This document shows positions 4,386 through 23,108 of a stretch of 24,517 nt of DNA, one piece after another. The notes under the pieces are model-generated. The model was not told the DNA's origin, did not search any database, and worked only from the letters and a program-made list of their open reading frames with translations. The translations under genes were made by a program, and so were the position numbers. This DNA comes from Thermoanaerobaculia bacterium (lineage in GTDB: Bacteria; Acidobacteriota; Thermoanaerobaculia; Multivoradales; UBA5704), in assembly GCA_044226625.1 (NCBI GenBank), contig JBGAGQ010000081.1, forward strand, positions 1-24,517, given 5' to 3'. Each line of letters begins with the position of its first letter. Position 1 is the stretch's first letter.

Positions 4386-4407
4386 CGGGAGTCGGCTCGC
4401 GCGGAAG

Positions 4408-5181: not shown

Positions 5182-6151
5182 GCGAAAGCTCCCGGCGGAA
5201 GGCGCCGCTCGCGGTTTTCATGCTCGCCAGCCAATCGTACGCCATGGGGTCGACCACCACGACCTCGCCACCCAGCGCTTCGGCGATCACCTCGGCGGGT
5301 TTGGCGGCGAAACCGCGCTGGACGAACACGGCGTGGATGCCGTCGCGGCGGCCCCGGTCGATCATCTCGATCAACCGACCGGCCGACGGCTCGCGCCCGC
5401 CGACCTCGATCGCCACCTGCTCCAAGCCGTATTCGCGGGCGAAATACCCCCAGGCCGGGTGGTAGACCATGAAACGGCGGGAGGCGCCGCCCGCGAGCGC
5501 GGTCCGGATCTGGCGGTCCAGCCGGTCGACCTGCGCGAGAAAAGCGGCCAGGTTGCGGCGAAACTCCCCGGCGTGGCCGGGATCGATCGCTTCGAGCGCC
5601 AGGGCGACGTTCCGCGCCGCGATCCGCACCGTGGCGGGCGCTACCCAGACATGCGGGTCGCCGCCGACGTGGACGTGCTCGCCGTGAACCTCGCGCGGGT
5701 CGCGCTCCCCCGGGTCGGAGCCGAAGAATCCGGGCGATTCGGGTCGCCCCTCCGCCTCGCCTTCGAGGATCGGCTCGATGCCGGCCGACATGTCGACGAC
5801 CCGGATCTCGGGGTGCTCGGCGAGCACCGGGTCGATCTCGTTCGCCTCGAACAGGAACGCCGGGTGCCCGACCTTGACGTAGAGCCGCGCGCGGGCGAGG
5901 GAGACCAACTGCCGGGGGCTCGGAGAGTAGCTGGTCTCCGAAGCTCCGGGCGGGATCATCACCTGGGTCGATACCCGGCCGCCGCCGATCCGGTCGACGA
6001 AATACGCCTGCGGCGGAACGCTCACCGCGACCTGAATCCGCGGCGGCCCGGTGGACTCCGCCGCGCGAGGCGGCGCGGAGCAGGCCGAAAGCCCGATCGC
6101 TGCGACCACGATCGGGGTCGCGAAGATCGGCAGGAGGCGGACGACGGTCAC
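5174..6151 (-). CDS. znuA: Zn/Mn ABC transporter substrate-binding lipoprotein
   Basis: Lipobox LSAC; His loop EVHGEHVH; DPHVW, YHPAWGYFAREYGL and EPS motifs. Start set at GTG 6151 (track ORF begins at TTG 6175). Confidence 0.92.
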   Translation of the reverse strand: MTVVRLLPIFATPIVVAAIGLSACSAPPRAAESTGPPRIQVAVSVPPQAYFVDRIGGGRVSTQVMIPPGASETSYSPSPRQLVSLARARLYVKVGHPAFLFEANEIDPVLAEHPEIRVVDMSAGIEPILEGEAEGRPESPGFFGSDPGERDPREVHGEHVHVGGDPHVWVAPATVRIAARNVALALEAIDPGHAGEFRRNLAAFLAQVDRLDRQIRTALAGGASRRFMVYHPAWGYFAREYGLEQVAIEVGGREPSAGRLIEMIDRGRRDGIHAVFVQRGFAAKPAEVIAEALGGEVVVVDPMAYDWLASMKTASGAFRRELSHG

Positions 6152-6180
6152 CGCGCCATGATATCGCGTTCTCAATTTGC
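6152..6180 (-). promoter_or_regulatory. -10 TATCAT six nt before the znuA GTG (leaderless-type), inside a weak Fur/Zur-like AT-rich dyad
   Basis: Minus strand reads GCAAATTGAGAACGCGATATCATggcgcgGTG. Confidence 0.45.
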
Positions 6181-6227: not shown

Positions 6228-7034
6228 TCAGTTCAGGGATTGGAGGTGGCGTCCGGCGATCGCTCGGGCCGCCTGCGCCCGCTCGGCCACTTGGCGGCGT
6301 TTCGCGGACAGCCGGGCGATCCGACGGTTCTCCCGCGCCTCGCGCAGCCGAGAGATCGCCTGGCGCAGGAGGGTATCGGCTTCGAGCGTCTCTCCTGCGT
6401 CGAGCCGGAGATCGGCTTCGAGCTCCAGCATCCCTGCCTCGATCAGCAGATCGCCGCTTCCGCAGACCAGGTGCTTCACCCCTTCGCGCAACGCGTGCTC
6501 GGCGTGCCGCGGATCGCCCGCCTCCAGGTAGCTCTCCCCGATCGCGGTCCAGGCGCGCGCCTTCAAATCGGCGATCAACGCCGCGGGGTGTCGGGAAAGG
6601 TCGAGCTGATTCGCGACCTCCAGGGCGAGCTCGGAAAGCTCGGTCGGGGAGTACGCCTCGAGGAGGGCGGCCACCGGCCGGTCGTCGCCGGCCCCGGCGC
6701 GGGCGAGCAGCGCGTCGGCGAGGGAAAAGCTCTGGAACCGCGCGTCGGCCAGGCGGGCCGAGCGCTCCACCCGCGGCGTCGCCAGGATTTCGGCGAGCAA
6801 ATGGTCGACATCCCGCCGCTCTCGGTCGAGCACCTCGCCAGCGCGCGTGAGGCGGTCGAGCAGGGCGCCGGTGTCGAGCGAGAAGTCGTCCACGGAGAAC
6901 GGCTGATCCCGGCCCCAGGAGGTGAACACCTCACTGCCGACCCGCGGATCGGCCGGCGTGCCTTCCGCCTCCTCCAGGATGCGCCGCAGCGCTTTGAGTG
7001 CACGAGATGCCATGGTGATGAAACTTCCCCTCAT
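6228..7034 (-). CDS. TPR-like helical protein, shorter paralogue of 20713..22002
   Basis: ELALEVANQL..HPAALIADLKARAWTAIG..GSGDLLIEA aligns by eye with ELAVQIALQL..YDPCWVLDLQARAYAHLG..GTGNLRIEA. Alternative start ATG at 7013. Confidence 0.75.
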   Translation of the reverse strand: MRGSFITMASRALKALRRILEEAEGTPADPRVGSEVFTSWGRDQPFSVDDFSLDTGALLDRLTRAGEVLDRERRDVDHLLAEILATPRVERSARLADARFQSFSLADALLARAGAGDDRPVAALLEAYSPTELSELALEVANQLDLSRHPAALIADLKARAWTAIGESYLEAGDPRHAEHALREGVKHLVCGSGDLLIEAGMLELEADLRLDAGETLEADTLLRQAISRLREARENRRIARLSAKRRQVAERAQAARAIAGRHLQSLN

Positions 7035-9162: not shown

Positions 9163-11148
9163 ATGGGCAGAGATCGTCTCGAGCTGTTTCTCGCCAGCTT
9201 TCTGATGCTGTTCGCCGAGCTGGTCCTGATCCGCTGGACGAGCGCGCACGTGGTGTATCTGTCGTATTTCTCGAACTTCGTTCTGCTCGGCAGCTTCCTC
9301 GGCATCGGGCTCGGGTTCCTGCGCGCGGCGAAACGCCCCGATCTGTTCCGCTGGGCGCCCCTCGTCCTCCTCGTCGTCACCGCGCCGATCATGTTCCAGC
9401 CGGTGGTCATCGACCGCAGCGGCGGCGACCTGATCTATTTCGGCTCGATCACGTTTCATGGCCTCCCGTCCTGGTTCGTCCTCCCTTCGGTCTTCCTCGC
9501 GGTCACCGCGGCGATGGCCGCGGTCGCCCACGGGGTCGCGGTCCGCTTCGGGCGACTCGCGCCGCTCGAGGCCTATCGATTCGACATCCTCGGCTCGCTC
9601 GTCGGCGTGGTGGTCTTTGCGCTGCTCGCCTGGGTGAGCGCGCCGCCGGTCGCCTGGGCGCTGGTCGTGGCGCTGCTCTTCCTGCCGCTGCTCAAGCGTC
9701 GCGGCTGGGTCTTCGCGGTCAACCTGATCGCCCTGCTGGGAATGATCGGCGTCTTCGGCTACGCGAGCTTCCGGAAGAACCAAAGCTGGTCGCCTTATTA
9801 CCGGGTCGAGGTGCTCCCCCAATACATCCGCGTCAACGGCATCCCGCACCAGGCGATGATCCGGACGCCGGGGAGCTACTACGAGACGCCGTACAAGATG
9901 GCTGCCGGACCGATCCGCGACGTCCTGGTGATCGGCGCGGGCAACGGCAACGACGTGGCGGCGGCTCTGCGCGCGGGAGTCGCCCATGTGGACGCGGTGG
10001 AGATCGACCCGCAGATCCAGGCGGTCGGCCGGGCGCGCCACCCCGAGCACCCGTATTCCGACCCGCGGGTGCGGGCGATCGTCGACGACGGCCGCGCCTT
10101 CCTCGGCCGCACGACGAGCTCTTACGACCTGATCATCCTCGCGCTTCCCGATTCGCTCACCCTGGTGAGCGGTCAATCGGCGATCCGGCTGGAGAGCTAT
10201 CTGTTCACGGAAGAGGCGATCGAAGCGGCGCGCGAACGGCTGCGGCCGGGGGGCGCGTTCGTCCTCTACAACTACTACCGCGAAACTTGGCTGCTCGACC
10301 GGATCGCGGGCACCGTCGCCGACACCTTCGGGACGGCTCCTTGCCTGGAGCTCGGACCCGAACCGACCAAAAAGCAGAAGACGACCGGGCGCTTTTCGAT
10401 GCTCCTCGTGGGCCGCGAGCCGGGAGGCGTGCGCTGCGGCCAGCGTTGGCAGCCCGAGGCGGCGCGGATCGCCCCGGCGACGGATGACCATCCGTACGTC
10501 TACCTGAAGCAGCGACAGCTGCCGGCGCGCTACGCCATGACCCTCGGCTTGGTGCTCCTCGTCTCGTTCGTCCTGGTCCGCGTCGCGGGCGGCAAGATCT
10601 CGGCGATGCGGGGCGCGCTCGATCTGTTCGCGATGGGGGCCGCGTTCATGGTGCTCGAAACCAAGAGCGTGGTCCAGTTCGCGCTCCTGTTCGGCACCAC
10701 CTGGTTCGTCAACGCGCTGGTCTTCGCGGGGATCCTCGCCACGGTCCTGATCGCGATCGAGGTCGAGCGAAAAGTGCGGATCGGCCGACCGCGGCTGCTG
10801 TTCGCGCTTCTCTTCGGCGGTCTCTTGCTCGCCGCTCTGGTCCCATCCTCGGCGCTCCTCGCGCTGGCCCCGTTGCCGCGGTTCGCCGCGGCGACGGCTC
10901 TCGCCTTCTTCCCGATCTTCCTCGCGAATCTGATCTTCGCCGAGCGCTTCCGCGACAGTGAGGACTCGACCCGAGACTTCGGCGCGAACCTGCTGGGTGC
11001 GATGGTCGGCGGCGCGCTGGAGTACCTCTCGCTGGTCACCGGGTATCGCGCCCTGCTCGGCTTGGTCGCCTTGCTCTATGGGATGGCCTGGATCTTCTCG
11101 CGATCGAGGTCGCGGCTCGCCGTCGGTAGCTCGAGCTCGACCCGATAG
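9163..11148 (+). CDS. Membrane-embedded spermidine-synthase-like SAM-dependent transferase
   Basis: N- and C-terminal TM bundles flank a class I SAM fold: VLVIGAGNGND, VEIDP, DDGRAFL, YDLII, ESYLFTEE and ATDDHPY. Confidence 0.85.
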   Translation: MGRDRLELFLASFLMLFAELVLIRWTSAHVVYLSYFSNFVLLGSFLGIGLGFLRAAKRPDLFRWAPLVLLVVTAPIMFQPVVIDRSGGDLIYFGSITFHGLPSWFVLPSVFLAVTAAMAAVAHGVAVRFGRLAPLEAYRFDILGSLVGVVVFALLAWVSAPPVAWALVVALLFLPLLKRRGWVFAVNLIALLGMIGVFGYASFRKNQSWSPYYRVEVLPQYIRVNGIPHQAMIRTPGSYYETPYKMAAGPIRDVLVIGAGNGNDVAAALRAGVAHVDAVEIDPQIQAVGRARHPEHPYSDPRVRAIVDDGRAFLGRTTSSYDLIILALPDSLTLVSGQSAIRLESYLFTEEAIEAARERLRPGGAFVLYNYYRETWLLDRIAGTVADTFGTAPCLELGPEPTKKQKTTGRFSMLLVGREPGGVRCGQRWQPEAARIAPATDDHPYVYLKQRQLPARYAMTLGLVLLVSFVLVRVAGGKISAMRGALDLFAMGAAFMVLETKSVVQFALLFGTTWFVNALVFAGILATVLIAIEVERKVRIGRPRLLFALLFGGLLLAALVPSSALLALAPLPRFAAATALAFFPIFLANLIFAERFRDSEDSTRDFGANLLGAMVGGALEYLSLVTGYRALLGLVALLYGMAWIFSRSRSRLAVGSSSSTR

Positions 11149-12200
11149 CGTCCGGGCGCGGCGAGGACACGGAGCGCCGCGCGCTCACCGTAGCGGCCGG
11201 CCAGCCGGGCGCGAACGTTCGCGAGACCCACGCCCTGTCCTTTAGCGCCGGACCGGCCGGAATCGCACGGGTTCTCGATCGCCAGATGCAGCCGAGGGCC
11301 GTCGCCGCTCCTCCCTTCGGCGACGAGGCGCGCCTCGATCCGGATCGCCCCTCCTTCCAGCAGCTCGGCGATGCCGTGGCGCACGGCGTTCTCGACCAGG
11401 GGCTGGAGGAGGAGAGGAGGCACCGGCCGGTCGAGTGCCGCGGGGTCGAGATCCTCCTCGACCGTCAACCGGTTGCCGAAGCGCGCCCGCTCGACCGAGA
11501 GGTAGGACGAGACGAGCGCCGCCTCCTCGGCGAGCGGGATCTCCTCGGTCGCTCCGACGTTCAGGCTGCGGCGCAGGAACTCGGCGAGCAGGATCGACAT
11601 ACGCCGCGCGGCGGGAGGATCGCTCGCGGCGAGGGCGGCGATCGTGTTCAGGGCGTTGAACAGGAAGTGGGGATCGAGCTGGGACCGTAGCGCCTTCCAT
11701 TCGGCCTCCCGGGCGAGCAAACGCTGGGCGAGGGCTCGGCGCTCGGCCGCGCTGCCCGCCGCGAGGGCGAGCAGGAGATAGTGGAACGCGACGGCGAGCA
11801 GATAGAGCGGCACGCCGAGAGCGAACAGGACCGGCGCCACCGCCGGGAAGCGCTGGTCGAGTCGGTCCAGCCCGGAGACCGACGAGAGGAGCAGCAGCCA
11901 ACCACGCCCGACCAAAGCGAGAAGGGCGCCCGAGGCGAACGCCGCGACCAGATGGCCGCCCAGGACCTCCAGCACCTGCCGGGCGCTTCGGCCGGAATCG
12001 AGCGGCAGCGCGCGGCAGAGGTACCAAGCGGAGAGACAGAGGTAGGCGAAGAGGTAGGCGAGCGGCAGGCCGACGAGCGCCGCCTCGGCCGGCGCGAGCT
12101 CTCCACGCCAGACGAGCAGAACGACGATCAGCGCGGCGAGCGGGCTCCACCCCAGGAGATAGAGCCCGAGCCGCCCGCGGCCTGCGAAGATCGGATGCAC
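11076..12200 (-). CDS. LytS/YehU-family sensor histidine kinase
   Basis: H-box ALRSQLDPHFLFNALNTI, ERARFGNRL, N-box LQPLVENAVRHG, G-box GQGVGLANVRARL and N-terminal TM helices. Start GTG 12200 (MHPIF). Confidence 0.92.
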   Translation of the reverse strand: MHPIFAGRGRLGLYLLGWSPLAALIVVLLVWRGELAPAEAALVGLPLAYLFAYLCLSAWYLCRALPLDSGRSARQVLEVLGGHLVAAFASGALLALVGRGWLLLLSSVSGLDRLDQRFPAVAPVLFALGVPLYLLAVAFHYLLLALAAGSAAERRALAQRLLAREAEWKALRSQLDPHFLFNALNTIAALAASDPPAARRMSILLAEFLRRSLNVGATEEIPLAEEAALVSSYLSVERARFGNRLTVEEDLDPAALDRPVPPLLLQPLVENAVRHGIAELLEGGAIRIEARLVAEGRSGDGPRLHLAIENPCDSGRSGAKGQGVGLANVRARLAGRYGERAALRVLAAPGRYRVELELPTASRDLDREKIQAIP

Positions 12201-12238: not shown

Positions 12239-12991
12239 CTAGAAGTCCCGCTTCCGTTGATTCATGATCTCGACTCCGCCCATCAGAACGAAGCCTTTGA
12301 TCACCAAGCGGCCCGTGGGAATCGACGACGGCACCGGCCGATGCTCCTCGAACGAGCCGAGAATCGGCGTGGCGTTGACGACCACCGCCCAGCCCTCGGG
12401 CACCAGGATGTCGATCCCTCCCCACACGGCGAACAGGTCGAGCACCGCTTCGCTTCCCTCGGGCATCGTCGCGCCCCGGAGATCGATCTCGCAGGCGCCG
12501 AGGACCGCGGAAGCCTGACCACCGCGAAACGCGGTGGAAGTGCTCGTCACCTTCGACGATCCCAGCAAGGCGAACGTGTTCACCTCGGCGCTCGCATCGG
12601 CCGTCGAGGATCCCCGCCGCCGCCACGAACGCCGCGGCGAGGTCATCATGCGGATGCCGACCAGCAGGAGGACGCCGGGCGCGATGAGGTCGCCGCGGAT
12701 CGGAAAATCGACCCAATGCCGCAGGAGGATCGCGCCGAAGATCACGATCATGAGGGCGCCGAAGAATCTCTGGCCGTCGCGGCGCGGCTGGAGGACTTTG
12801 ACCACGCCGATCGCGATCGGGAACAGCGGCCAGAGGTAGATCCAATCGTCGGCGCTGAGGACGTCGAAACGGTCGAGCATGAGCAGACCGCCGAACAGGA
12901 AGAGGAAGAGCCCGAAGATCGCTCGGCCTCCGTTCCAGCTGCTGTCGCAGCGGGACGCCGGGCGGTCGGTAGAGGAGGGAAGAGGTTCCAT
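12239..12991 (-). CDS. LiaF-like membrane protein (DUF5668 TM region + DUF2154 C-terminal domain)
   Basis: Four TM helices (YLWPLFPIAIG) followed by FRGGQASAVLGACEIDLR and AVWGGIDILVPEGW; AGGAG RBS. Confidence 0.85.
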   Translation of the reverse strand: MEPLPSSTDRPASRCDSSWNGGRAIFGLFLFLFGGLLMLDRFDVLSADDWIYLWPLFPIAIGVVKVLQPRRDGQRFFGALMIVIFGAILLRHWVDFPIRGDLIAPGVLLLVGIRMMTSPRRSWRRRGSSTADASAEVNTFALLGSSKVTSTSTAFRGGQASAVLGACEIDLRGATMPEGSEAVLDLFAVWGGIDILVPEGWAVVVNATPILGSFEEHRPVPSSIPTGRLVIKGFVLMGGVEIMNQRKRDF

Positions 12992-13165: not shown

Positions 13166-15169
13166 TCACTCGGCCGAGAGGATCCGTCGCAACAGAAGCA
13201 GCAGACCGAGGCCCGCGAGACCGAGGACCACCGGCAGAAGGAAGCGCAATCCGCGCGGCTCGTCGCGGACGACCGGCGCGAGCTCGCCGGCCTGCCAGGG
13301 ACGTCCGAGCAGCTCGCCGGTCAAGGCGGCCAGGTCGTAGTCGGGCGCGGCGACCGAGTCGGCCCCCGCGAGCAGGCGCACCTTGGCCGAGTTGCCGGGC
13401 CAGACGAAAACCAGGAGATCGCGGCGGCGCCAGACCGCGAGCTCCACCTCGCCGAGCGGCGCGTTGTCTCCGTCGTCGAAACGGACCGCGATTCGCGGGG
13501 CTCCGGATCCTTCGAGCGGCAGGAGAGTCCGGCAAGGGAGCGGCGGCATCGGGTTGCACTCCCAGAGCGTCCCACCGATCGTCGTCTCGCGGCCGGAGGG
13601 CTCGGGGTTGCGCGGACGGACGGCGAGGACCTCCAGCCTCCGACGGAGCGGACCGTTCGGGGTCGAGATCGAGAGCTGCGTCCACGGCGAGCGCGAGGCG
13701 GGAAGGTCGAGCTCCACCCGACTCCAGCCGCGGCGACGCTCGGCCTCCGCGCGGGTTCCCCAGGCGACCGCCGAGCGTAGCGGCTCGGGCGCGGTCCAGC
13801 GGACGTAGGGAATTTGACGCGCGCCGACGGCCAGGCGGAGATCCCCGAGGTCCCCGTGCGCCGCGGCATAGACGCCATCCGGAATCTCCAACCGGACGAC
13901 GTCTCCCGCCGAGGCGCCGGGGGCCGCGACTTCCCAAGACGATGGAAAGGCCTCCAGGGTGAGGGATGCGCCAGGATCCGCCGCGTGCGGCAAGGGCGGC
14001 GCGGGGCGCGCTCGCTCCGGACCGGCGAGGACCTCCGCCGGATCGACCTCCCCGTCGCTCTCGACCCGCGGGGGCGAACCCGCGCCCGCGCCATAGATCA
14101 GGGTGTAACGCCCCGCGGCCGACGCGCGGAACGAGACCTCCCGCGGCGCGATCTCCAGCCGCACGCCGGACAGCTCGGGCGGCGCTCCGGTCGCGTAGAG
14201 CGACAGGTAGAGGACGTCGCCCGCGGTCACTCCGGCGTCGAGGTTCAGGAGATGCCGGGTTTGCCCCGCGCCTGGCTCCATGGGTTCCGCCGCCTCCGCT
14301 CCACCCGCGGCAGCTACCGGACGTTGCCATACGCCCTCGGCGAGCGTTGTGAAACGCCCTCCGTCGGGCACCTCGACGAGATAGCCGACCGGGCCGGCTC
14401 CCGAGAGCGAAAGCTCGAGCCGGCGAACGGCCGTACCCGCGGCAGGCAGGTTGATCCGACAGGAAACGGCGCCGCTGCCGCCTCGCTCGCAGGTCGTCTC
14501 GGCGGTCGTGAGCGCGATCGACGATCCGGCCGAAAGCTCCAGCTCGACCCCGCGCAGCTCCGGGAAACCGGCCGACTTCGGCCAAGAGAGCCGAAGGTAG
14601 CGGACCGACGTCGGCGGATACGAAAGCGCGGTGCGCTCGAGTCCGCCGTCCCCTTCGCCGAGCCGAAACAGATCCCCCTCGGTGAGCGGCTGCCAGCTCT
14701 TGCGATCGGTGCTCCCTTCGAGCTTGACCGAGGTCGCCGCGGTCCGCCGATCGAGGTCGAAGATCAGTTGCTCGTGAGCGGGAGCGCCCTCGCCAGCGTC
14801 GAGCGTGAGGCGCCAACCGGTAGCGTCGGGTTTGAGATCGATCACCCGCGCCGCACGGCGACCTGGACGCACCGGCGGGCTCACGAGGCGGCGGGCCACC
14901 TCCGTGCCGTCCGGTCCGATCACGCGCAGGTCGGCGCCGTCCGGCGCGACGTGGCGGAGGGCCGAAAGGTCGAGCGCCACCCGGACCCAGCCGGGCGCCG
15001 CCACCTCGAGATCGCGCTCGAAGATTCGCGCCGGTTCCAGCGCGGCGAGCGAGGTGCCGACCCCGAGGAGACCGACGAGAGCCGACAGGGCGAGCGGACG
15101 GACCTTCCGTTCGCCCCAAAAGGTGCGAAGGGACCGGGTGCGGATGGACTTGCTGCGGATGGACCTCAT
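13166..15169 (-). CDS. DUF3999-like exported protein with C-terminal membrane anchor
   Basis: Signal peptide, two copies of a DLR(V/L)..G motif, DDGDNAPL, PDYDL and a C-terminal TM with basic tail. ATG 15169 is coupled (ATGA) to the DUF2339 stop. Confidence 0.75.
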   Translation of the reverse strand: MRSIRSKSIRTRSLRTFWGERKVRPLALSALVGLLGVGTSLAALEPARIFERDLEVAAPGWVRVALDLSALRHVAPDGADLRVIGPDGTEVARRLVSPPVRPGRRAARVIDLKPDATGWRLTLDAGEGAPAHEQLIFDLDRRTAATSVKLEGSTDRKSWQPLTEGDLFRLGEGDGGLERTALSYPPTSVRYLRLSWPKSAGFPELRGVELELSAGSSIALTTAETTCERGGSGAVSCRINLPAAGTAVRRLELSLSGAGPVGYLVEVPDGGRFTTLAEGVWQRPVAAAGGAEAAEPMEPGAGQTRHLLNLDAGVTAGDVLYLSLYATGAPPELSGVRLEIAPREVSFRASAAGRYTLIYGAGAGSPPRVESDGEVDPAEVLAGPERARPAPPLPHAADPGASLTLEAFPSSWEVAAPGASAGDVVRLEIPDGVYAAAHGDLGDLRLAVGARQIPYVRWTAPEPLRSAVAWGTRAEAERRRGWSRVELDLPASRSPWTQLSISTPNGPLRRRLEVLAVRPRNPEPSGRETTIGGTLWECNPMPPLPCRTLLPLEGSGAPRIAVRFDDGDNAPLGEVELAVWRRRDLLVFVWPGNSAKVRLLAGADSVAAPDYDLAALTGELLGRPWQAGELAPVVRDEPRGLRFLLPVVLGLAGLGLLLLLRRILSAE

Positions 15170-17946
15170 GTGGAAGTTCCTTCGCGCTCTTCCTCCGCGC
15201 GGCCGAACACGAACTTCTGGTAGACGAACGCCAGGCCGAGCAGCGAGGCGCCCAGGCCAAGGAAGGAAACGACCCGATACAGGCCTGTGAGGTTCGAGGC
15301 GTCGTAGAGAAAGACCTTCGCCACCGCGAGCGAGGTGATGGCGAGCGATGCCCAACGAAGCGCCCGGCTCTTCCTCCGCACGCCGAGCGCCAGGAGGACC
15401 AACCCGAAGACGAGCCAGGCGACCGAGTAGGCGTACCGCTCGGCGATCGAGGTGGCGCCCTGCCCTAAGAGGCCGCCATGGAAGGCTTGGCGGACTTCGA
15501 GCGTAAGGAGCAGGAACGCGAGCAGCAGGGACGCGACGACGAACGCCTTTGCGCTCCGGAGCCAGCCGCGGCGCGAGAGCTCTCGGAAAGCGATCTGAAA
15601 GAGGACGATCGGCACGCCGAAGCCGTAGAGGAGGAGGTTTACGACCGGCAGGGAACCCACGTCCGAACCTTCCCAAAGCGGGTTGAGCAGGAAAGGAGGT
15701 CCGACGAGGGTCGAGGCGAATCCGGCACCCAGCAGCGCGGCACCGCCCCAGCAGAACGCCCTTCGGCCGTTGCGCCGTTCGATCCAGAGCAGACCGAGAC
15801 CCAGAAGCAGCCACGCCGCGTCGTAGCTGCTCCATTCGGCAAACGTCGGCCCGCCGTGCGCGAGACGTCCCGGGTGGAAGATCTGGCGGATCTCCAAGGT
15901 GATCAGGCCGACAGCGAAACCGATCGCGCCGAGCTCGAGCTCCAACGCCAACCGGGCCGGGGAGCTCTTGGCCCCCTCGTCGGTCGCTGGCGGCGCCGGC
16001 CGTTCCCGAGCGAGCTTCGCCGCGAGCGCGAAGGCCGCCAAAGGAACGCCGTAGCCGTAGAGGAGCCAGTTCCAGAGCGGATGGGTGCCGAGCGGGTAAT
16101 CGAGCACCGCCGGGTTGAGCAGGAGCCGGACGACCACCAATCCGCCCACGACGCGCGCGAGCGTTCTCAAGGCCGGCAGATCGAAGCGGCGGTCGAGCCA
16201 GACCAGAGCCGCGACCTCGACCGCCCAGGCGACCGCGATCCACGGCTTCGAAAGCTCCAGGGGAGCGGCAAAGCTGACGAAGGTCGTGATCGCCGCGGCG
16301 AGCGCCGCGAGGGCGGGCGAAAGCTCCAGCCGCGACCGGCGGCGAGCCGCCAGCGGTAGTGCGCCGACGAGGAAAAGGAGCGCCAGGCCGAGCGACCAGG
16401 CGCCGAAGCGGACCCCGGCGAGCCGCTCGTTACCGAACCCCCAGACGATCAGGAAGAACGCGACCGCGGCCGCCGCGGCAAGGCTTCCCCACCGGCCCGG
16501 CCGGCGGGCGCGCCAAAGCCCGGCGTACCCGCCGAGGACGAAGACCGCGCCGAGCGCCGCCGAGCCGAGGACGAAGCGGACGACCTCGGCGCTCGTCGAA
16601 GCGCCGTCGAGGGCGCCGCCCCACGCGGTCGAGAGCGCCGCGGTCATGGCCGCCGAGACCCAGGCGAGCGGCTCGAGGTCCGAGCGGCGATGCGCGACGA
16701 AGAGCGCTCCGGCGCCGAGCAAACCGAACATGGCGACCTCGGGCAAGGCGAAATCGCCGCGCCCCACGACGAAGGCGAGGACGCCGAGCGCCGCCGCGAC
16801 CGCGAGGCCCGCGAGCGCGACCTGGCCGCCGCGCGGCTCGCCGGGTGTCGTGTCGCGCCTCGGAACGCCGAGCGCCGCGAACACCGCCGAGGCGGCGGAC
16901 ACCAGCAGGAAGAGGGCGAGGAAGATACCGTCGCCCGTCTTGTACGGTTGGGAGAGCCAGATCCCGACCCAGAGCAATCCCGCGGCGAACGAGGCGCCCG
17001 CGATCGGCCACCACGCGCGCTTTTTCGACACGGCGAGCAGGCCGATCTCCAGCACCAGCAGGTAGGCGAACAACTTCGAGGCGTCTCCCGAGCCGGTGCG
17101 CACGAGCAAGGGCGTGAGGTATCCGCCGATCAGCCCGACGATCGCGACGATCGGCCCCTGCCGGAGCGACAACGCGACCGCGACCACCGTGGTGAGGACC
17201 ATCAGCGCAAAACCGACTCCCGGAGGGATCAGGCGATAGAGATGGATGCCGGCGAGGAAACAGGCGAACAGATCGGCGATGCCGGCCGCCGACAGCGCTT
17301 CGCCGATCCGGGCGCTCTTCTTTCGCATCCATTCGCCGCCCGCCAGCAGGACGAGACCGAACGCGATTCCGAGCGCCACGCGGATCGCTGGCGAGATCCA
17401 TCCCTGCTCGAACGAGTACTTGACCAGGAAGACGCCGGCCAGGGCGAGCGCGATCGCGCCGAGCCAAATCGGCGCGCGCGTCGCCAGGTTCTTCTCCCAC
17501 CCCTCGAACGGCCGCCGCGCGGGCCCGGCGGGAGGGAAGGGAGCCACGGGAGCCTGGGGGGCCGAAACTCGAGGCGAGGGAACCGGAGCGGCCGACGGCG
17601 AGACGACCGGCGCATCGGTGGACGCAGGGGTTATCGGCGGAACGGAGACCGCCGCAGGGAAAACCGGAGAAGGTGGAGCCACCGAAACGACTTCGGAGGA
17701 GGGAGTCACCGGAAGGGCCGGACCCGCCGCGGCCTGGGGCCCGGTCGGAGCTTCGACGACGCCTACGAGTGCCTCTCCCTCGAGCGGCTCACGACGCTCT
17801 AGACGAGCGAGCCGCTGCTCCAGCTGCACCATCTGGCGGGCCAAGGGCTCCAGCCGGGGATCCACCATCGGCCGGCGCGACAGGCGGATGACCCAGACGA
17901 GAAGGCCGAACACGATGAGGCCGAGTACCGCGCCGAAGCACTCCAT
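15166..17946 (-). CDS. DUF2339 large polytopic membrane protein
   Basis: Pro-rich linker, WEKNL..WLG..GVFLVKYSFEQGWISPAIRV, GLIGGYLTPLL and C-terminal AKVFLYDASNLTGLYRVVSFLGLG. Confidence 0.9.
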   Translation of the reverse strand: MECFGAVLGLIVFGLLVWVIRLSRRPMVDPRLEPLARQMVQLEQRLARLERREPLEGEALVGVVEAPTGPQAAAGPALPVTPSSEVVSVAPPSPVFPAAVSVPPITPASTDAPVVSPSAAPVPSPRVSAPQAPVAPFPPAGPARRPFEGWEKNLATRAPIWLGAIALALAGVFLVKYSFEQGWISPAIRVALGIAFGLVLLAGGEWMRKKSARIGEALSAAGIADLFACFLAGIHLYRLIPPGVGFALMVLTTVVAVALSLRQGPIVAIVGLIGGYLTPLLVRTGSGDASKLFAYLLVLEIGLLAVSKKRAWWPIAGASFAAGLLWVGIWLSQPYKTGDGIFLALFLLVSAASAVFAALGVPRRDTTPGEPRGGQVALAGLAVAAALGVLAFVVGRGDFALPEVAMFGLLGAGALFVAHRRSDLEPLAWVSAAMTAALSTAWGGALDGASTSAEVVRFVLGSAALGAVFVLGGYAGLWRARRPGRWGSLAAAAAVAFFLIVWGFGNERLAGVRFGAWSLGLALLFLVGALPLAARRRSRLELSPALAALAAAITTFVSFAAPLELSKPWIAVAWAVEVAALVWLDRRFDLPALRTLARVVGGLVVVRLLLNPAVLDYPLGTHPLWNWLLYGYGVPLAAFALAAKLARERPAPPATDEGAKSSPARLALELELGAIGFAVGLITLEIRQIFHPGRLAHGGPTFAEWSSYDAAWLLLGLGLLWIERRNGRRAFCWGGAALLGAGFASTLVGPPFLLNPLWEGSDVGSLPVVNLLLYGFGVPIVLFQIAFRELSRRGWLRSAKAFVVASLLLAFLLLTLEVRQAFHGGLLGQGATSIAERYAYSVAWLVFGLVLLALGVRRKSRALRWASLAITSLAVAKVFLYDASNLTGLYRVVSFLGLGASLLGLAFVYQKFVFGRAEEEREGTST

Positions 17947-19207: not shown

Positions 19208-19374
19208 TCGTTTCACCTCGTGGACTGAATAAATCGTTCGGCAAGCGTAACGCACTTCGAGTCTAGGCGCGAATGCTGATGATTCCTTGTCACGCTCCCC
19301 CTGGGCCCGCGCACCTCATTTTCCAAACGGAGAGAGCTTTTTCTTGCTTTCTGCCCGCGCGCGAGAGTCTCCCC

Positions 19375-20217
19375 ATGGAGCCGCCGAAGATGCACAAGGC
19401 CGGACCGGAGCCCGAGATCGAAGCGCGAGGAGGCCAGGACTCTCGCCGGCAGAATCCTTCCGGCGTTTCGAGGCTCGGGCGGCTCGTCGCCGCGTCCCCC
19501 GCGATGCGCCAGGTTCTCTCTCGCATGGCCGCCCTTGCCGGCTCGGATCTTCCGATCCTGATCGAAGGGGGGCCGGGCACCGGCAAGAGCCTCGCCGCTT
19601 CGACTCTTTGCGAGCTGAGCTACTGGGCGCGCTTTCCGCGCCTGGAGGTCGATCTCTCCGAATCGGGCGTGCCGGTCGAGGAGGGATTGGCGGAGATCCG
19701 CTCGCTCGCCCGCCGGGGATACGGCACGTTGATCTTCGAGTCGGTCGAAACGCTTTCGTCCGAACGGCAAAAGCTCCTGGTTCATCTTCTCGACGAAATC
19801 CTCCCCGTCGAGCATGGCGGAAAGCTCCGCCTGATCTCGACGAGCCGAAGGGAGCTGCGGGCCGAAGTGGCCCGAGGGCGCTTCCGGGCCGACCTCTACT
19901 ACCGGCTGCGCGGCGCCCTCCTTCGTATGCCGAGCTTCGCGGAACGGCCCGAAGATCTCCCTCTCGTGCTCGCCGACGCGATGCAGGGATCCCCTTTCGA
20001 GAGCTTCGACGGAGCCCGTCGCGCATCGGACGCGGGCGTTGCCGAGCCGCCCCGGAATCTACGGGAGTATCGCCGGAAGCAGGAGAGGGCGCTCGTCCTC
20101 GAAGCGCTCGAAGGGGTGCGCTGGAACGTCTCGGCCGCCGCCCGTGGATTGGGCCTCAGCCGCGTGGGCCTGAGCAAGAAGATGAAGGTGCTCGGCCTTG
20201 TCCGGCCCACGGCCTGA
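19375..20217 (+). CDS. Degenerate sigma54-activator-like AAA + Fis-type HTH regulator
   Basis: SPAM, LPILIEGGPGTGKS, GRFRADLYYRL, ERPEDLP and HTH WNVSAAARGLGLSR. GAFTGA is absent and Walker B is altered. Start ATG 19375 (alternatives 19273, 19390). Confidence 0.85.
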   Translation: MEPPKMHKAGPEPEIEARGGQDSRRQNPSGVSRLGRLVAASPAMRQVLSRMAALAGSDLPILIEGGPGTGKSLAASTLCELSYWARFPRLEVDLSESGVPVEEGLAEIRSLARRGYGTLIFESVETLSSERQKLLVHLLDEILPVEHGGKLRLISTSRRELRAEVARGRFRADLYYRLRGALLRMPSFAERPEDLPLVLADAMQGSPFESFDGARRASDAGVAEPPRNLREYRRKQERALVLEALEGVRWNVSAAARGLGLSRVGLSKKMKVLGLVRPTA

Positions 20218-20259
20218 GGACGCTTTCGAAACGGCAGGGCGACCGAGAATCGGCGACGC

Positions 20260-20553
20260 TCAGTTGGGCTCGGGAACCGACGGGTTGGCCGCGCCGCTCT
20301 GCGGAGGGGCGGGAGCCCCGTCCGGATCGAGGATGCTGCCATGGTTCGCGAACAGCTGATGGGGCCGATCCGGCTCGTTTCCGGCGAGGCCGATCGACTG
20401 GAAGATCCTCCCGATCAGCTCGTCGGCGAAGGCCCACAGACCGCGGCCCGTTTCGGCGGGACTGATGCCGGAGAGGGCCGACGCGGGCTGCGCGGCGGCG
20501 AGGAAGAGGGCGAGACTCGACAGAACCAAGACCTGCGGCAGTTTGCGGATCAT
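20260..20553 (-). CDS. Small secreted peptide precursor (97 aa) with GSILDPDG motif
   Basis: Strong AAAGGAG RBS 7 nt before ATG; Sec signal MIRKLPQVLVLSSLALFLAAAQPASA; amphipathic helix GLWAFADELIGRIFQSIGL; ANHGSILDPDG; Pro-rich tail. Confidence 0.8.
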   Translation of the reverse strand: MIRKLPQVLVLSSLALFLAAAQPASALSGISPAETGRGLWAFADELIGRIFQSIGLAGNEPDRPHQLFANHGSILDPDGAPAPPQSGAANPSVPEPN

Positions 20554-20579
20554 GCGCGGCTCCTTTGGAAGAGGTGAGG

Positions 20580-20599
20580 CTCGTAAAGTCGTTTACGAG
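20580..20599. promoter_or_regulatory. Perfect 8-4-8 inverted repeat upstream of the peptide gene
   Basis: CTCGTAAA-GTCG-TTTACGAG; function unknown. Confidence 0.55.
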
Positions 20600-20712
20600 G
20601 TTTCTTGTTTAGGGAACACAAATGCCGTTCAGGGCCATTTCTTGATCGAATGTATCCGAATTCGAGAACCTTGTGGGCGCATTTCTCCCTCTCCGGGCCC
20701 TTTTCCCCGGAT

Positions 20713-22002
20713 CTAGATGGTCGGTTGGCGTCGTTCGCGGGCCAGGTGGGCCGCGAGATGCTTCGCCAGGTTGAGCGTCAGCCGCTCCTCCTCACAAGCC
20801 CGCTGGAACAGCAGCAGCGAGGCGAGCGCTTCGCGTCGTATCTCTCGGTCTTCGAGCAGCGGCAGGATGTCGACCGCCAGGCGTTTGAGGTCGGCGAGCC
20901 GCGAGGTCTGGGTGTAGAGGATCGCGAGGTCGAGGCAGACCAACGCGGCGTCGATCCCCATGTGTCGGGCCAGGAAAGCCTCCTGCACCGATCGCAACGT
21001 CCTCTCGGCGACCTCGGTGTAGCCCTGTCGAAGCCGCAACCGCGCCTCGTACCAGGAAAGGCGGATCAGGTCGAGCTCACCGCCGAACCTTTGCGCGAGC
21101 GAAAGCACGGTCGGCAGCAGCGCCTCCGCTTCCGCGTGCAGCCCGCTTTGCACCATGCTCTCGAGAAGGTTGTTGTGCAGAACCAGATCGAGCCGGGGCT
21201 CCCGCTCCGGCGTGATCATCGCGGCGGCCCGGCGCAGGTGCGGGATCGCCTGGGCGGCCCGGTCCATCTCAAGCAGCGTATGCGCTTTGTTCAGGTACGC
21301 CCGTCCGGCGAGGTGGCGATCCCGTGCAGAGGAATCCTCGCAGTAGATCGAGATCGCGCGATCGATCAGGCCGAGCGCCTCGCCGAACCGGCGCTGATCG
21401 CGGCGGAGCGCGGCTTTGAGGACCGCGATCTCGGCCTCGATCCGTAGATTGCCCGTTCCGCTCGTCGCCATCGGATTTTCGGCCAGACGAAACGCGTCCT
21501 CCGCGCTTCGCAGCTCGCCGAGCACGCGCCGGGCGTTGCCGAGATGGGCGTAGGCCCGTGCCTGAAGATCGAGCACCCAGCACGGGTCGTAGGCCGGGCC
21601 GAGCTGGAGAGCGATCTGCACCGCCAGCTCCGCCGCGTCGACCGCCCGGGACGGGTCGTCGAGCGCCTCTCGGCGGCTGCGGGTGAGGAGCAGTTGGCAG
21701 AGGCCCCAGGTCTGGAGCTCGCCTCGTTCTCTGACGGCCCGATGCTGGTCGTCGAACGGCATCCGTTCGAGCTCCGCCAGCAGATCCACGGCCTCTCGCG
21801 CTTCGACCGCGGCCACCATCTCATCCCAATGTCCCATCTCCTCCAGCTGTTTCGCCAGCCGGTTGGCGGTCTCCTGGCACGTCGCGCAGGCCGACAAGAG
21901 GTGAGGAGCGATCGCGCGGAGCACCTCCTCGTGCTCCATGCGCCCAGAAAGCCACCGCGCCAGAGCCTCCATGTTCGGGTGGGACGAAAGAGATTCCGTC
22001 AA
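20713..22002 (-). CDS. TPR-repeat protein with N-terminal zf-HC2/ZAS-like zinc finger
   Basis: H8...H34-x4-C39-x2-C42 (HLLSACATC); TPR-like repeats ARAYAHLGNARRVLGELRSAEDAF, LRRDQRRFGEALGLIDRAISI and GRAYLNKAHTLLEMDRAAQAI; GGGGAGG RBS before TTG. Confidence 0.85.
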   Translation of the reverse strand: MTESLSSHPNMEALARWLSGRMEHEEVLRAIAPHLLSACATCQETANRLAKQLEEMGHWDEMVAAVEAREAVDLLAELERMPFDDQHRAVRERGELQTWGLCQLLLTRSRREALDDPSRAVDAAELAVQIALQLGPAYDPCWVLDLQARAYAHLGNARRVLGELRSAEDAFRLAENPMATSGTGNLRIEAEIAVLKAALRRDQRRFGEALGLIDRAISIYCEDSSARDRHLAGRAYLNKAHTLLEMDRAAQAIPHLRRAAAMITPEREPRLDLVLHNNLLESMVQSGLHAEAEALLPTVLSLAQRFGGELDLIRLSWYEARLRLRQGYTEVAERTLRSVQEAFLARHMGIDAALVCLDLAILYTQTSRLADLKRLAVDILPLLEDREIRREALASLLLFQRACEEERLTLNLAKHLAAHLARERRQPTI

Positions 22003-22199
22003 GATGCAGCCCTCCCCAGCGGGAATGTGTCCCCTTCGGAAAAAGTGTCGCTAAAAGGAACCAGTTTCCTCAGAGGGGAATTTTGGGACAACAATTTTCC
22101 TCACCCGGGAGAAAGGGGAGGATCTCGACCGGGGGAAGGTCTTCGAGGAATGCCGGGCGGGAGAAGCGCGGCCCAGGATTCGGGCGAGGGCCTCGTCGA

Positions 22200-23108
22200 T
22201 CAGGCGACCGGCGTCCCCTCGCTCGCGGTGAGGGCGCGGAACAGCGAAGACAGGCGGGCCGTCATCGGTCCCGGGAGGTCCGCGCCGGGGGACCCGATCC
22301 GGCGGCCGTCGATCTCCTTGACCGCGGCGAGCTCCCCCATCGTGCCGGTACAGAAAACCTCCTCCGCGCGATACGCCTCGGTGAGCGACAGGTCTCGCTC
22401 CGCGTGCGGGATGCCGTTCTTTCGGCAGAGGTCGAGCACGGTCGCCCGCGTGATCCCCTCCGGACAGGAATGGCAGAACGGCGTGAGCAACTCACCTCGC
22501 CGAACGAGGAAGACGTGGGTCGCGTTCGTCTCGGCGATGAAGCCGCGGGGGTCGAGCATCAGGGCGTCGTCGGCGCCCGCCTGGTTCGCCTGGATCTTCG
22601 CCAGGATCGACTGGATCAGGTTGCAATGGTGGATCTTCGGATCGAGCCCGTCGGGGGGGAAGCGACGGATCGTGCTGGTCACGAGCGTGAGGCCCGCCCG
22701 GCCGTACACCGGAGCCTTGTGCTCGGCAAGCACGATCAGGGTCGGCCCGCTCTGGTTGAGCCGCGGGTCCATGCCGCTCGTGATCTTGACGCCGCGAGTG
22801 AGGGTCAGGCGGATGTGGACCTGATCCCGCATCCCGTTCGCCTCGAGCGTCTTTCGAATCTCCGCGACGATCGCCTCGCGCGTGGGGATCTCGGCGAAGG
22901 CCAGCGCCTGCGCCGAGCCGGTCAACCGATCGAGATGCTCGTCGAGCTTGAACACCCGGCCATCGTAGACCCGCAGACCCTCCCAAACGGCGTCGCCCCC
23001 TTGCACGGCGGAGTCGAACGGGCTGATCCCGGCCTGATCGCGATGGACCAAGCGACCGTTGATGTTGACCAGCAGATCGCGATTCTTCTCGTTCCAGGTC
23101 TGGAGCAC
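22200..23108 (-). CDS. Aminotransferase class IV (BCAT/DAAT fold), BCAT-like subfamily
   Basis: ISPFDSAVQGGDAVWEGLRVY, HLDRL, GFIAETNATHVF, EGITR and AEEVFCTGTMGEL. GTG 23108 has a GAGG RBS. Confidence 0.9.
   Translation of the reverse strand: MLQTWNEKNRDLLVNINGRLVHRDQAGISPFDSAVQGGDAVWEGLRVYDGRVFKLDEHLDRLTGSAQALAFAEIPTREAIVAEIRKTLEANGMRDQVHIRLTLTRGVKITSGMDPRLNQSGPTLIVLAEHKAPVYGRAGLTLVTSTIRRFPPDGLDPKIHHCNLIQSILAKIQANQAGADDALMLDPRGFIAETNATHVFLVRRGELLTPFCHSCPEGITRATVLDLCRKNGIPHAERDLSLTEAYRAEEVFCTGTMGELAAVKEIDGRRIGSPGADLPGPMTARLSSLFRALTASEGTPVA

Follow-up and report, generated by a model that had tools for sequence, protein, structure and literature searches.

A candidate DPxG peptide and TPR sensor gene pair, recurrent in Thermoanaerobaculia, that may be an undescribed peptide-signalling system

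Genetically encoded peptide signalling with cytoplasmic receptors is described for Bacillota and their mobile elements (PMC10075063, PMC9765709). In these RRNPP(A) systems (Rap-Phr, NprR-NprX, PlcR-PapR, Rgg-SHP, AimR-AimP), a small exported propeptide is encoded next to a cytoplasmic TPR protein, an XRE-type HTH or the Rap 3-helix bundle forms the N-terminal effector module, and the short linear unmodified pheromone is sometimes present in several copies, as in multi-peptide propeptides (PMC9765709). A second group relevant here is the class I zinc-binding anti-sigma (ZAS) factors, such as ChrR, RsrA, RslA, and RsiW, in which a His/Cys-x23-26-H-x3-C-x2-C motif lies in an N-terminal helical domain. 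The zinc ligands of ChrR are H6, H31, C35, and C38, and a C-terminal cupin sensor is fused to the anti-sigma domain (ASD).

A sequence-only reading of a 24,517-nucleotide stretch of DNA from a Thermoanaerobaculia bacterium (contig JBGAGQ010000081.1 of GCA_044226625.1, here called the window) had proposed that a TPR protein and an adjacent small signal-peptide gene form an analogue of RRNPP systems in a high-GC, probably acidobacterial, lineage, with a zinc-finger output domain. We therefore examined the two genes, their relatives, and their predicted structures. The observation itself was confirmed, whereas the interpretation was supported only in part. The pair resembles RRNPP systems in layout and in the many paralogous pairs per genome but, with no detectable homology to their receptors, would be analogous rather than homologous to them, and it differs from them in its host, in its usual gene order (small gene upstream of the TPR gene), and, at this locus, in its N-terminal module. 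Literature searches on RRNPP systems in Acidobacteria returned no paper, although supplementary files, which could list non-Bacillota candidates from RRNPP surveys, were not covered. Searches on quorum sensing in Thermoanaerobaculia, on zf-HC2 or ECF-linked anti-sigma proteins with tetratricopeptide repeats, on small secreted paralogous proteins of Acidobacteria, and on the motif itself likewise revealed nothing on this family; the motif search returned only the "NDPNG" of GH32 and unrelated papers.

The gene pair and its spacer

Both genes lie on the minus strand. The TPR gene (20713 to 22002) encodes 429 amino acids from a TTG start and has a GC3 of 0.83. The small gene (20260 to 20553) encodes 97 amino acids from an ATG start and has a GC3 of 0.85, against 0.54 to 0.68 for two overlapping alternative ORFs. 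An AAGGAG ribosome-binding site lies at 20560 to 20565 on the same strand, 6 nt before the ATG, and AAGGAGCCGC is conserved in all five orthologous spacers that were aligned.

The spacer (20554 to 20712, minus strand) is 159 bp at 52% GC, compared to 68 to 69% for the genes and the window, so that its description as AT-richer holds. The claim that it contains dyads was only partly right, since a single inverted repeat was found, CTCGTAAA/TTTACGAG at 20580 to 20599, with 8-bp arms and a 4-nt loop, 27 to 46 nt upstream of the ATG of the small gene. It reads as terminator-like only on the plus strand, and this exact hairpin is not conserved in the orthologues. In the same alignment of five orthologous spacers, the block GTTCTCGAATTCGGATAC (20652 to 20669, minus strand) is conserved in the spacers of the four genus orthologues aligned and is a candidate promoter or operator, inferred from conservation alone. 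A consensus scan for sigma-70-like promoters over 20150 to 22250 found 0 sites, and inspection of the spacer by eye for sigma-54 and ECF-type promoter spacing gave no consistent case.

The small protein begins with a signal-peptide-like segment (residues 1 to 26; 20476 to 20553, minus strand) that comprises a K/R n-region (MIRK), a hydrophobic core, and an A24-S25-A26 site. This was judged by eye and by hydropathy only, but the same layout occurs in all 13 aligned paralogues. It is followed by a Trp/Phe-rich, amphipathic helix-like segment, GLWAFADELIGRIFQSIG (residues 38 to 55; 20389 to 20442, minus strand), in which GLWAE is conserved in the orthologues, and a W/F-rich segment is present across paralogues and in the wider family. 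Residues 67 to 81 (L67-FANHGSILDPDG-AP81, that is, LFANHGSILDPDGAP; 20311 to 20355, minus strand) hold the core motif G72-x3-D76-P77-x-G79, here G72-SIL-DPDG79. D76 and G79 are invariant and G72 and P77 near-invariant in 13 paralogues, N.G..L[DS]PDG.P is conserved in the genus orthologues, and the motif is the only block conserved at ≥70% in 39 upstream-type homologues. Orthologues of the small protein occur in 5 genus relatives at 45 to 57% identity in conserved synteny, while the accompanying TPR proteins are 75 to 81% identical.

Linkage of the two families across genomes

To determine if the pairing exceeds chance, we first searched the genome for paralogues. The genome holds 24 TPR paralogues, of which 16 or 17 have such a small gene beside them. 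A search with the whole small protein found no paralogue in its own genome below an E value of 0.1; the family appeared only through the motif and then a profile. Of 41 six-frame G...DP[DN]G hits, 10 lie within 1 kb of a TPR paralogue, compared to 0.29 expected (Poisson, 9e-13), whereas four control motifs gave 0 hits near paralogues out of 19, 28, 17, and 37 genome-wide. With the profile, 17 of 19 small-family hits lie within 400 nt of a TPR-family ORF, and 16 of 24 full paralogues have such a hit; of the 6 hits that had not been used to build the profile, 4 are adjacent.

The same linkage was observed in other genomes. Of 30 loci centred on small-gene hits, 28 of which come from 15 other genomes, 29 have a TPR ORF at an E value of ≤2e-48. 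Conversely, of 44 loci fetched from other Thermoanaerobaculia MAGs by similarity to the single TPR protein alone, 41 carry the small gene, and the 3 misses are TPR fragments. In 40 of these 41 loci the small gene lies upstream of the TPR gene, so that the order in the window, with the small gene downstream, is the exception. The lack of enrichment of adjacent small ORFs and the lack of motif conservation had been named beforehand as outcomes that would count against the proposal, and neither was found. The sequence-only reading had also suggested that both families are expanded in Thermoanaerobaculia; this, together with the lineage guess, was borne out by these loci and by genome searches with an 11-paralogue alignment. 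The pair recurs dozens of times per genome in this group of soil Acidobacteriota. Outside it, 0 of 250 other Acidobacteriota genomes had a small-family match at an E value of ≤1e-5, but since only 20 candidates per genome were scored and family f1 was not resampled, this bounds the range only loosely.

The small family has 1286 representatives at an E value of ≤1e-3. Its motif copies sit at or near the C terminus and are often in tandem, and most members carry 3 to 4 disulfide-type loops, with Cys at position -3 in 398 of 473 units. Neither family has a Pfam or NCBIfam model or a functional name: database entries for the TPR protein read "tetratricopeptide repeat protein" or "hypothetical," and the ESM Atlas gave only unnamed "hypothetical protein" clusters. 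Clustering of the ORFs in 29 full-length loci revealed only one further conserved neighbour, a divergent acyl-CoA-synthetase-like gene (23 loci), and no conserved transporter, export ABC transporter, protease, immunity-type membrane protein, or modification enzyme.

The predicted TPR protein and its N-terminal module

The TPR protein scored below the Pfam gathering cut-offs for TPR_12, TPR_8, and TPR_1 (27.2, 20.3, and 19.6 bits against 30.1, 25.7, and 27.8), although closer paralogues do pass (for example, TPR_12 at 58.9 bits). No hydrophobic 19-mer reached a Kyte-Doolittle mean above 1.51, indicating a cytoplasmic protein without a transmembrane segment. AlphaFold2 predicted an all-helical repeat protein (pLDDT 91, 22 helices) with paired helices from H99 to H423. 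The repeat domain (residues ~100 to 429; 20716 to 21705, minus strand) is the presumed ligand-binding part, and it has near-invariant polar residues (N156, R159, Q203, R205, E208, N278, R314, W317, E319, R390, and E391) that are inferred to line the groove. The best Foldseek matches of the model (E values of 2e-5 to 1e-4; TM of 0.5 to 0.56 normalised to the query) were the TPR domains of LGN/Pins (LGN at an E value of 2e-5) and kinesin light chain, which hold extended peptides in the inner groove of a superhelix. These are eukaryotic scaffold proteins at 14 to 19% identity, and the likeness is of fold class only. Rap proteins (RapF, RapI, RapH, and phage Rap) appeared at ranks 19 to 44. At the sequence level, no homology to any RRNPP receptor family was detected, since Pfam and NCBIfam scans listed only generic TPR families and the NsdA family of Streptomyces TPR-like regulators (NF053720). 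The latter is the only named family with a sequence match to the TPR part (E value of 3.2e-9, residues 114 to 231), but the protein is not a member (36.8 bits against a cut-off of 75), and NsdA is not known to have a zinc domain or a peptide partner.

Residues 1 to 60 (21823 to 22002, minus strand) contain the motif H8-x25-H34-x4-C39-x2-C42, whose four residues are invariant in 39 of 39 aligned homologues and 26 of 26 N termini. This region, which had been called a zinc finger, reads instead as a ZAS-like anti-sigma domain, although the sequence and structure scores are marginal. The best PDB sequence hit of the profile was the anti-sigma factor ChrR (E value of 0.0087), with H8, H34, and both Cys columns aligned to His and Cys residues of ChrR with a one-residue gap, so that the spacing is H-x4-C-x2-C and not H-x3-C-x2-C. 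A VIA-align structure search placed RslA and MucA (Z of 5.0), RsiW (4.8), RskA (4.2), RseA (4.1), ChrR (3.9), and DdvA (3.8) among the top 34 rows, all below the caution level of Z 8, and Foldseek on the isolated N-terminal 100 residues gave no match (best E value, 8.5). The fused sensor would be a TPR domain of ~330 amino acids.

Within the same family the N-terminal module is exchanged. HTH_31, an XRE-type HTH, was found in place of the ZAS-like motif in the paralogues designated C5 (42.6 bits) and C57 (30.6 bits) against a cut-off of 27, and C13 scored just below at 26.9. Other paralogues lie in operons with sigma factor and small genes. In the locus designated C76, ECF sigma genes lie directly upstream and are read as co-transcribed with the TPR paralogues, and orthologous loci read small gene, then sigma, then TPR, with a small hit in 20 of 30 and a sigma-like ORF in 25 of 30. 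However, most paralogues lack an adjacent sigma factor, and none of the 43 Sigma70_r2 matches of the genome lies on the contig of the window's pair (C83). An initial reading of an ECF-sigma-like ORF upstream of paralogue C20 was not supported, because no Sigma70_r2 match was reported there. The class of the TPR protein tracked that of the small protein: 0 of 9 ASD-type partners had tight Cys loops, compared to 15 of 20 non-ASD partners (hypergeometric probability of about 2e-4, with related loci not independent), and in the window's own genome all 4 HTH-type paralogues have Cys-bracketed units.

Interpretation and rival readings

The analysis establishes the genes, their conservation, their tight linkage, the domain make-up, and the exchange of modules, whereas export, processing, uptake, binding, and the sigma partner of the window's protein are inferred. 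The reading that we favour, though only tentatively and at less than even confidence, is that the exported protein yields the ligand of its neighbouring TPR sensor. In this view, the pair is one copy of a lineage-specific, massively duplicated cassette in which the small Sec-exported protein carries a signal peptide, a Trp-rich amphipathic helix, and one to several copies of a G-x-x-[ILVM]-D-P-x-G unit. The protein would be exported and cut, and a short peptide containing the DPxG unit would be taken up again and bind the concave face of its own TPR partner. Binding would change what the N-terminal module does, releasing or holding an ECF sigma factor in the anti-sigma forms or binding DNA in the HTH forms, so that transcription would follow the level of the peptide from the cell itself or its neighbours. 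The four variable positions around the invariant D-P-x-G would give each co-resident pair its own channel. Besides the linkage, the motif enrichment and conservation, the exchange of modules, the tracking of receptor and peptide classes, and the resemblance to peptide-binding TPRs, this reading is favoured by an Opp/Dpp-type binding protein encoded in the genome (1 match). The HTH-bearing paralogues and the C-terminal, often tandem, motif copies favour the RRNPP analogy in particular.

Several findings weigh against this reading. The organism is presumably diderm, as is established for Acidobacteriota, so that a Sec substrate would end in the periplasm and passage across the outer membrane and back is unexplained. 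The core motif is nearly the same in dozens of co-resident pairs, which invites cross-talk, and specificity from the four variable positions is only a supposition. The conserved amphipathic helix is not typical of a mere propeptide spacer and hints at a function of the exported protein itself, and the disulfide-type loops are unlike the linear RRNPP pheromones. The window's TPR gene has no adjacent sigma factor to indicate its output, and the structural match of its N-terminal domain to anti-sigma domains is weak. Moreover, since adjacent genes are inherited together, clade-level agreement of receptor and peptide types does not prove recognition. A co-fold of the TPR protein with residues 28 to 97 of the small protein gave only weak support (scores of 0.57, 0.47, and 0.41, median 0.47; best of 3 controls, 0.02; partner pLDDT, 41 to 46; runs agreeing in at least 45% of contacts). 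In calibration, the mark was reached by 58 of 80 solved complexes and 2 of 110 mismatched pairs, but at 0.60 or under by only 7 of those 80 and by both mismatches, so that such a pass is more often wrong than right unless the guess was already likely. As no contacts were given, the result does not place the motif in the groove, and we count it neither for nor against. A further-reaching and more doubtful possibility, which is not excluded, is that a peptide-pheromone superfamily arose independently of RRNPP in diderm Acidobacteriota, with dozens of private channels per genome. This would be the first peptide-ligand-controlled cytoplasmic anti-sigma factor and the first RRNPP-like cell-cell signalling found outside Bacillota.

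If the exported peptide is the ligand, the system would show how diderm bacteria can use peptide pheromones, provide a new input class for ECF sigma/anti-sigma switches, and offer a large natural library of short-peptide/TPR recognition pairs useful for orthogonal synthetic circuits. The cassette makes up a visible share of the regulatory genes of an abundant but little-cultivated soil and bioreactor lineage. Even if the pair is only a regulator and its target, the exported DPxG-loop proteins remain a large unknown family of envelope or extracellular proteins worth characterising.

This regulator-plus-target arrangement is the main rival and is not excluded, although we consider it somewhat less likely than the favoured reading. 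The TPR protein would sense some other intracellular cue and control a small exported protein with its own extracytoplasmic role, such as envelope, metal, or calcium binding, adhesion, or antagonism, and the one-to-one pairing would reflect duplication of whole cassettes rather than molecular recognition. Regulators next to their targets are the commonest bacterial arrangement, the Trp-rich helix and disulfide-type loops look like a structured exported protein, the small gene heads a sigma/anti-sigma operon in C76-type loci as an autoregulated ECF regulon member would, and no transporter or protease is conserved beside the pair. However, the anti-sigma-type proteins have no DNA-binding domain, and of the own paralogues with a small partner only the second C76 TPR has an adjacent sigma gene, while one also lies near the pair designated C124, beside its short paralogue. 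It is therefore hard to see how such proteins would target just the neighbouring gene, and a dedicated 430-aa regulator for each 100-aa protein, dozens of times over, is unusual.

The remaining readings appear improbable. The TPR domain might bind the unexported precursor as a chaperone or as a gauge of export flux, with sigma or HTH output reporting how fast the precursor leaves the cytoplasm, which resembles in logic, though not in parts, the release of sigma-28 by FlgM export. Both proteins are made in the same compartment, often from one operon, and no uptake step is required, but dozens of parallel gauges of one export pathway make little sense, and the conserved unit lies at the C-terminal end, away from the signal peptide. 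Slightly less likely still, the exported proteins might be bacteriocin-like antagonistic peptides that the TPR proteins regulate or against which they confer self-protection. The proteins are small, exported (by inference), Cys-rich, fast-evolving, and multicopy, and one paralogue gave a stray Pfam match to a fungal defensin, but this match (E value of 0.019) is not significant, no immunity, export, or modification gene is conserved nearby, and a cytoplasmic TPR protein is an unlikely immunity factor for an exported peptide. That the small ORF is spurious and its adjacency due to chance, as might be considered in a high-GC genome full of such ORFs, is effectively refuted by its GC3, ribosome-binding site, syntenic orthologues, family size, and linkage. 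No RNA contig covered the small gene, but contigs say nothing about absence or level; in one metatranscriptome run, two 151-nt contigs lay only on the neighbouring AAA+ gene, and in another run, whose RNA status is a guess, two 151-nt contigs lay on the TPR gene (20883 to 21174).

The two-gene locus and the recurrence of the pairing

The two genes lie on the minus strand of a 24,517-bp contig (C83) of a 6.6-Mb genome with 67.7% GC. The larger gene (20713..22002) has a TTG start and encodes 429 amino acids, whereas the smaller gene (20260..20553) has an ATG start and encodes 97 amino acids. A match of the TPR gene was flagged as containing one internal TAG (20713-20715), but this is the gene's own stop codon, included at the end of the match, and not a break. 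Third-position GC was 0.83 and 0.85, respectively, which matches the neighboring real genes and exceeds the values for two overlapping alternative ORFs (0.54-0.68). An AAGGAG sequence lies 6 nt before the ATG of the small gene, and the 159-bp spacer between the genes is 52% GC, compared to 68-69% in the genes themselves. The spacer holds one inverted repeat with 8-bp arms, at 20580-20599. This hairpin is followed by a T-rich run only on the plus strand and so scans as an intrinsic terminator for a transcript antisense to the small gene; on the genes' own strand, it would sit in the 5' leader of the small gene. The small protein reads as a K/R n-region, a hydrophobic core, and an A-S-A site (residues 1-26), followed by a Trp/Phe-rich helix-like stretch (GLWAFADELIGRIFQSIG) and then by LFANHGSILDPDGAP and a Pro/Ser-rich tail, with the signal peptide being judged from the sequence only. 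What the sequence-only reading had observed at this locus was thus upheld, apart from its claim of dyads in the plural.

To determine if the pairing could be due to chance, paralogues of both genes were sought in the same genome. A phmmer search revealed 24 full-length paralogues of the TPR protein (26 tblastn matches when fragments were included). A whole-length search found no paralogue of the small protein, but a search with the motif did. In an annotation-free six-frame scan, 10 of the 41 G...DP[DN]G hits in the genome were located within 1 kb outside a TPR paralogue, against an expectation of 0.29 (Poisson probability, about 9e-13). Four control motifs (the PD swap, E for D, A for the last G, and the reversed motif) gave 0 hits near paralogues out of 19, 28, 17, and 37 hits genome-wide. 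The ORFs carrying the motif all shared one layout, namely, a signal-peptide-like N terminus with an AxA-type site, a W/F-rich helix, and one to three G-x-x-[ILVMF]-D-P-x-G units. A profile built from 13 of these ORFs found 19 ORFs in the genome, of which 17 were within 400 nt of a TPR-family ORF, and 16 of the 24 paralogues had such a neighbor. Of the 6 hits that had not been used to build the profile, 4 were adjacent to a TPR-family ORF. Two further members, on contigs C60 (15875-16171, plus strand) and C125 (105990-106268, plus strand), have the signal peptide, the W-rich helix, and IDPSG or IDPNG but have no TPR-family gene within 16 kb and 36 kb, and may be orphan propeptides. These results indicated that the pairing is not chance.

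Related loci were recorded as belonging to Thermoanaerobaculia or Acidobacteriota MAGs. The TPR profile matched 20 of 21 related genomes, with 29-78 matches per genome in the same family, although only 82 candidates were scored per genome. The small-protein profile matched 16 of the 21 genomes, with 15-45 matches per genome in the genus, 8-29 in the other genera of the family, and 0-7 in other families of the order. Of 30 loci centered on the best small-protein hits, 28 of which came from 15 other genomes, 29 had a TPR-family ORF beside them at E<=2e-48; the exception was a weak hit inside an 852-aa ORF. E values from profile searches of such small sets of loci are relative to those sets; the hits were checked by reading the sequences. 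The fairest test employed 44 loci that were retrieved by similarity to the TPR protein of C83 alone (41-78% identity). Of these, 41 carried a small-family gene, and the three misses were TPR fragments. In 40 of those 41 loci, the small gene was located immediately upstream on the same strand and usually possessed two or three [KDN]EG[MVT][ST]IDP[ND]G units, the last at or within a few residues of the C terminus. Only the genus-level orthologue (locus L104) shared the gene order of C83, with the small gene downstream. In a 250-genome sample of the rest of the phylum, no match reached an E value of 1e-5 in a search of reduced sensitivity. In a library of 1.84 billion cluster representatives, the small-protein profile found 1286 proteins at E<=1e-3 and 112 at E<=1e-10. 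The top 150, which included a few of this genome's own proteins, were 82-212 aa long, and 142 of the 150 had two or more DPxG units, with most units being Cys-bracketed ([DKE][NE]GC-x-[IL]-D-P-x-G-x-C).

The pair on C83 is itself conserved. Five genus relatives keep the same neighborhood, i.e., two aminotransferases, the TPR gene, the small gene, an AAA+/HTH_8 gene, and a GNAT gene. Across these relatives the TPR protein was 75-81% identical, but the small protein was only 45-57% identical; what survived in the latter was the signal peptide, GLWAE, and N-x-G-x-x-L-[DS]-P-D-G-x-P. In 39 upstream-type homologues, the two EG..IDP.G units were the only blocks conserved at 70% or more. The AAA+ gene (19273-20217, plus strand) is convergent with the small gene and is kept in synteny in the genus (65-74% identity). 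It encodes a 314-aa protein (Sigma54_activ_2, 64 bits; HTH_8, 36.5 bits) that has no receiver or other sensor domain and, by our reading of the sequence, no GAFTGA loop.

Predicted domains of the TPR protein and their variation

Pfam gave only subthreshold TPR hits for the copy on C83, and NCBIfam gave NsdA below the cutoff, whereas closer paralogues passed the TPR cutoffs. Public names were "tetratricopeptide repeat protein" or "hypothetical." AlphaFold2 modeling with 39 homologues predicted an all-helical structure (pLDDT, 91; pTM, 0.85). The best Foldseek matches of this model were peptide-binding TPR superhelices, namely, LGN/Pins (E = 2e-5; TM, about 0.5-0.56), KLC1, and designed TPRs, while Rap proteins, including peptide-bound phage Raps, appeared at ranks 19-44. 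This shows a fold class rather than kinship. At the N terminus, H8, H34, C39, and C42 were invariant in 39 of 39 sequences. A profile of the first 100 residues had the anti-sigma factor ChrR as its best PDB sequence hit (E = 0.0087), with H8, H34, and both Cys columns aligned to His and Cys residues of ChrR. A structure search with the isolated domain (pLDDT, 81) placed RslA, MucA, RsiW, RskA, RseA, ChrR, and DdvA among the top 34 rows, but with Z values of only 3.8-5.0, which are below the caution level of the method, and Foldseek found nothing. Therefore, what the sequence-only reading had called a zinc finger is read here, with moderate confidence, as a ZAS-like class I anti-sigma domain.

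The output module is swapped within the family. Four paralogues in this genome, named for their contigs (C5, C57, C13, and C46), have an XRE-type HTH in place of the zinc domain. HTH_31 scored 42.6 and 30.6 bits for C5 and C57, respectively (cutoff, 27), while C13 was just below the cutoff at 26.9 and C46 was weak. These are exactly the four paralogues whose partners have tight Cys-bracketed units and are convergently transcribed. Across 29 paired loci from 15 genomes, tight Cys loops occurred with 0 of 9 ASD-type partners and with 15 of 20 partners lacking the ASD, and three of the remaining five had variant loops; because the loci are related, the hypergeometric value of about 2e-4 overstates the case. 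Moreover, next to Cys-type small genes, on the side away from the long HTH-TPR gene, lies a shorter divergent gene that has an HTH-like N terminus and only the first part of the TPR domain (profile positions ~30-198). Such genes were seen on C13 (~11000-11893, plus strand) and C46 (~19900-20733, plus strand) and at retrieved loci L063-L067, L079, L080, L082, and L084, and these loci therefore have two regulators flanking one small gene.

On contig C76 (153522-158601), a tandem locus reads ECF sigma, ASD-TPR, ECF sigma, small exported protein, ECF sigma, ASD-TPR. The small protein there (156245-156559) carries the unit GIQIDADG, in which Pro is replaced. Among 30 loci fetched as the best TPR-profile matches, most of them orthologues of the C76 locus, 20 had a small-family hit with GIQIDGNG repeats and 25 had a sigma-like ORF, again with E values relative to a small set. 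A gene similar to the AAA+ gene of C83 lies 650 nt upstream of the first sigma-TPR pair on C76. Thus, the same putative sensor domain is found with three outputs, i.e., a putative anti-sigma domain with a sigma factor alongside, a putative anti-sigma domain without one, or a DNA-binding HTH, and it nearly always comes with a predicted exported DPxG protein. The copy on C83 has no sigma gene on its contig, as none of the 43 Sigma70_r2 matches of the genome is located there.

Putative mechanism and relation to known systems

An interchangeable transcriptional output fused to a constant TPR domain, kept one-to-one with a fast-evolving exported protein, points to recognition between the two products. 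The only strongly conserved feature of that exported protein is a short, often C-terminal and repeated unit, whose four variable positions differ between paralogous pairs and are kept within orthologous ones. The simplest scheme follows the RRNPP logic, in which export and cleavage would be followed by uptake (one Opp/Dpp-type binding protein is encoded in the genome), binding in the TPR groove, and a change in sigma sequestration or DNA binding. It is the linkage of the genes that the analysis establishes, and every step beyond it, from export to altered output, is inferred. A cofold of the pair on C83 returned only weak support, which we count neither for nor against the scheme. Several features do not fit easily: the envelope is presumably diderm, the core of the motif is nearly identical in dozens of coresident pairs, the amphipathic helix is conserved, disulfide-type loops are frequent, which looks more like a structured exported protein, and the copy on C83 has no known sigma partner. 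The main rival explanation is a local regulator encoded beside its regulated target; this possibility is weakened because the anti-sigma forms cannot themselves pick out a neighboring promoter. The interpretation in the sequence-only reading, that of an RRNPP-like system with a zinc-finger output domain, was partly supported.

On paper the system works like an RRNPP system, but it does not qualify as one on homology or, for the copy on C83, on the effector domain. At the N terminus it resembles ZAS anti-sigma factors, although with noncanonical spacing and, in this case, without an adjacent sigma gene. Neither gene family has a Pfam or NCBIfam model, and the ESM Atlas neighbors are unnamed. 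The RRNPP surveys consulted frame these systems as a Bacillota/Firmicutes feature (PMC10075063; PMC9765709), and our literature searches, which did not extend to the supplements of those surveys, found no description of the present families. We consider the pair to be a nonhomologous analogue of propeptide/TPR-receptor cassettes, presumably diderm and coupled to a putative anti-sigma domain, whose function is inferred.

Other features of the contig

Elsewhere on C83, a LiaF-like membrane protein (12239-12991, minus strand; LiaF-TM, 49.9 bits) and a 926-aa DUF2339 membrane protein (15166-17946, minus strand) are encoded, and no link between these and the gene pair was seen. The contig also encodes a 268-aa short paralogue of the TPR family (6228-7034, minus strand), which matched profile positions 68-259 at E = 4e-23 and has neither a zinc motif nor an HTH. 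This gene lies directly upstream of, and is cooriented with, a ZnuA/ABC ATPase/ABC-3 permease operon of the zinc or manganese uptake type (3528-6175, minus strand).
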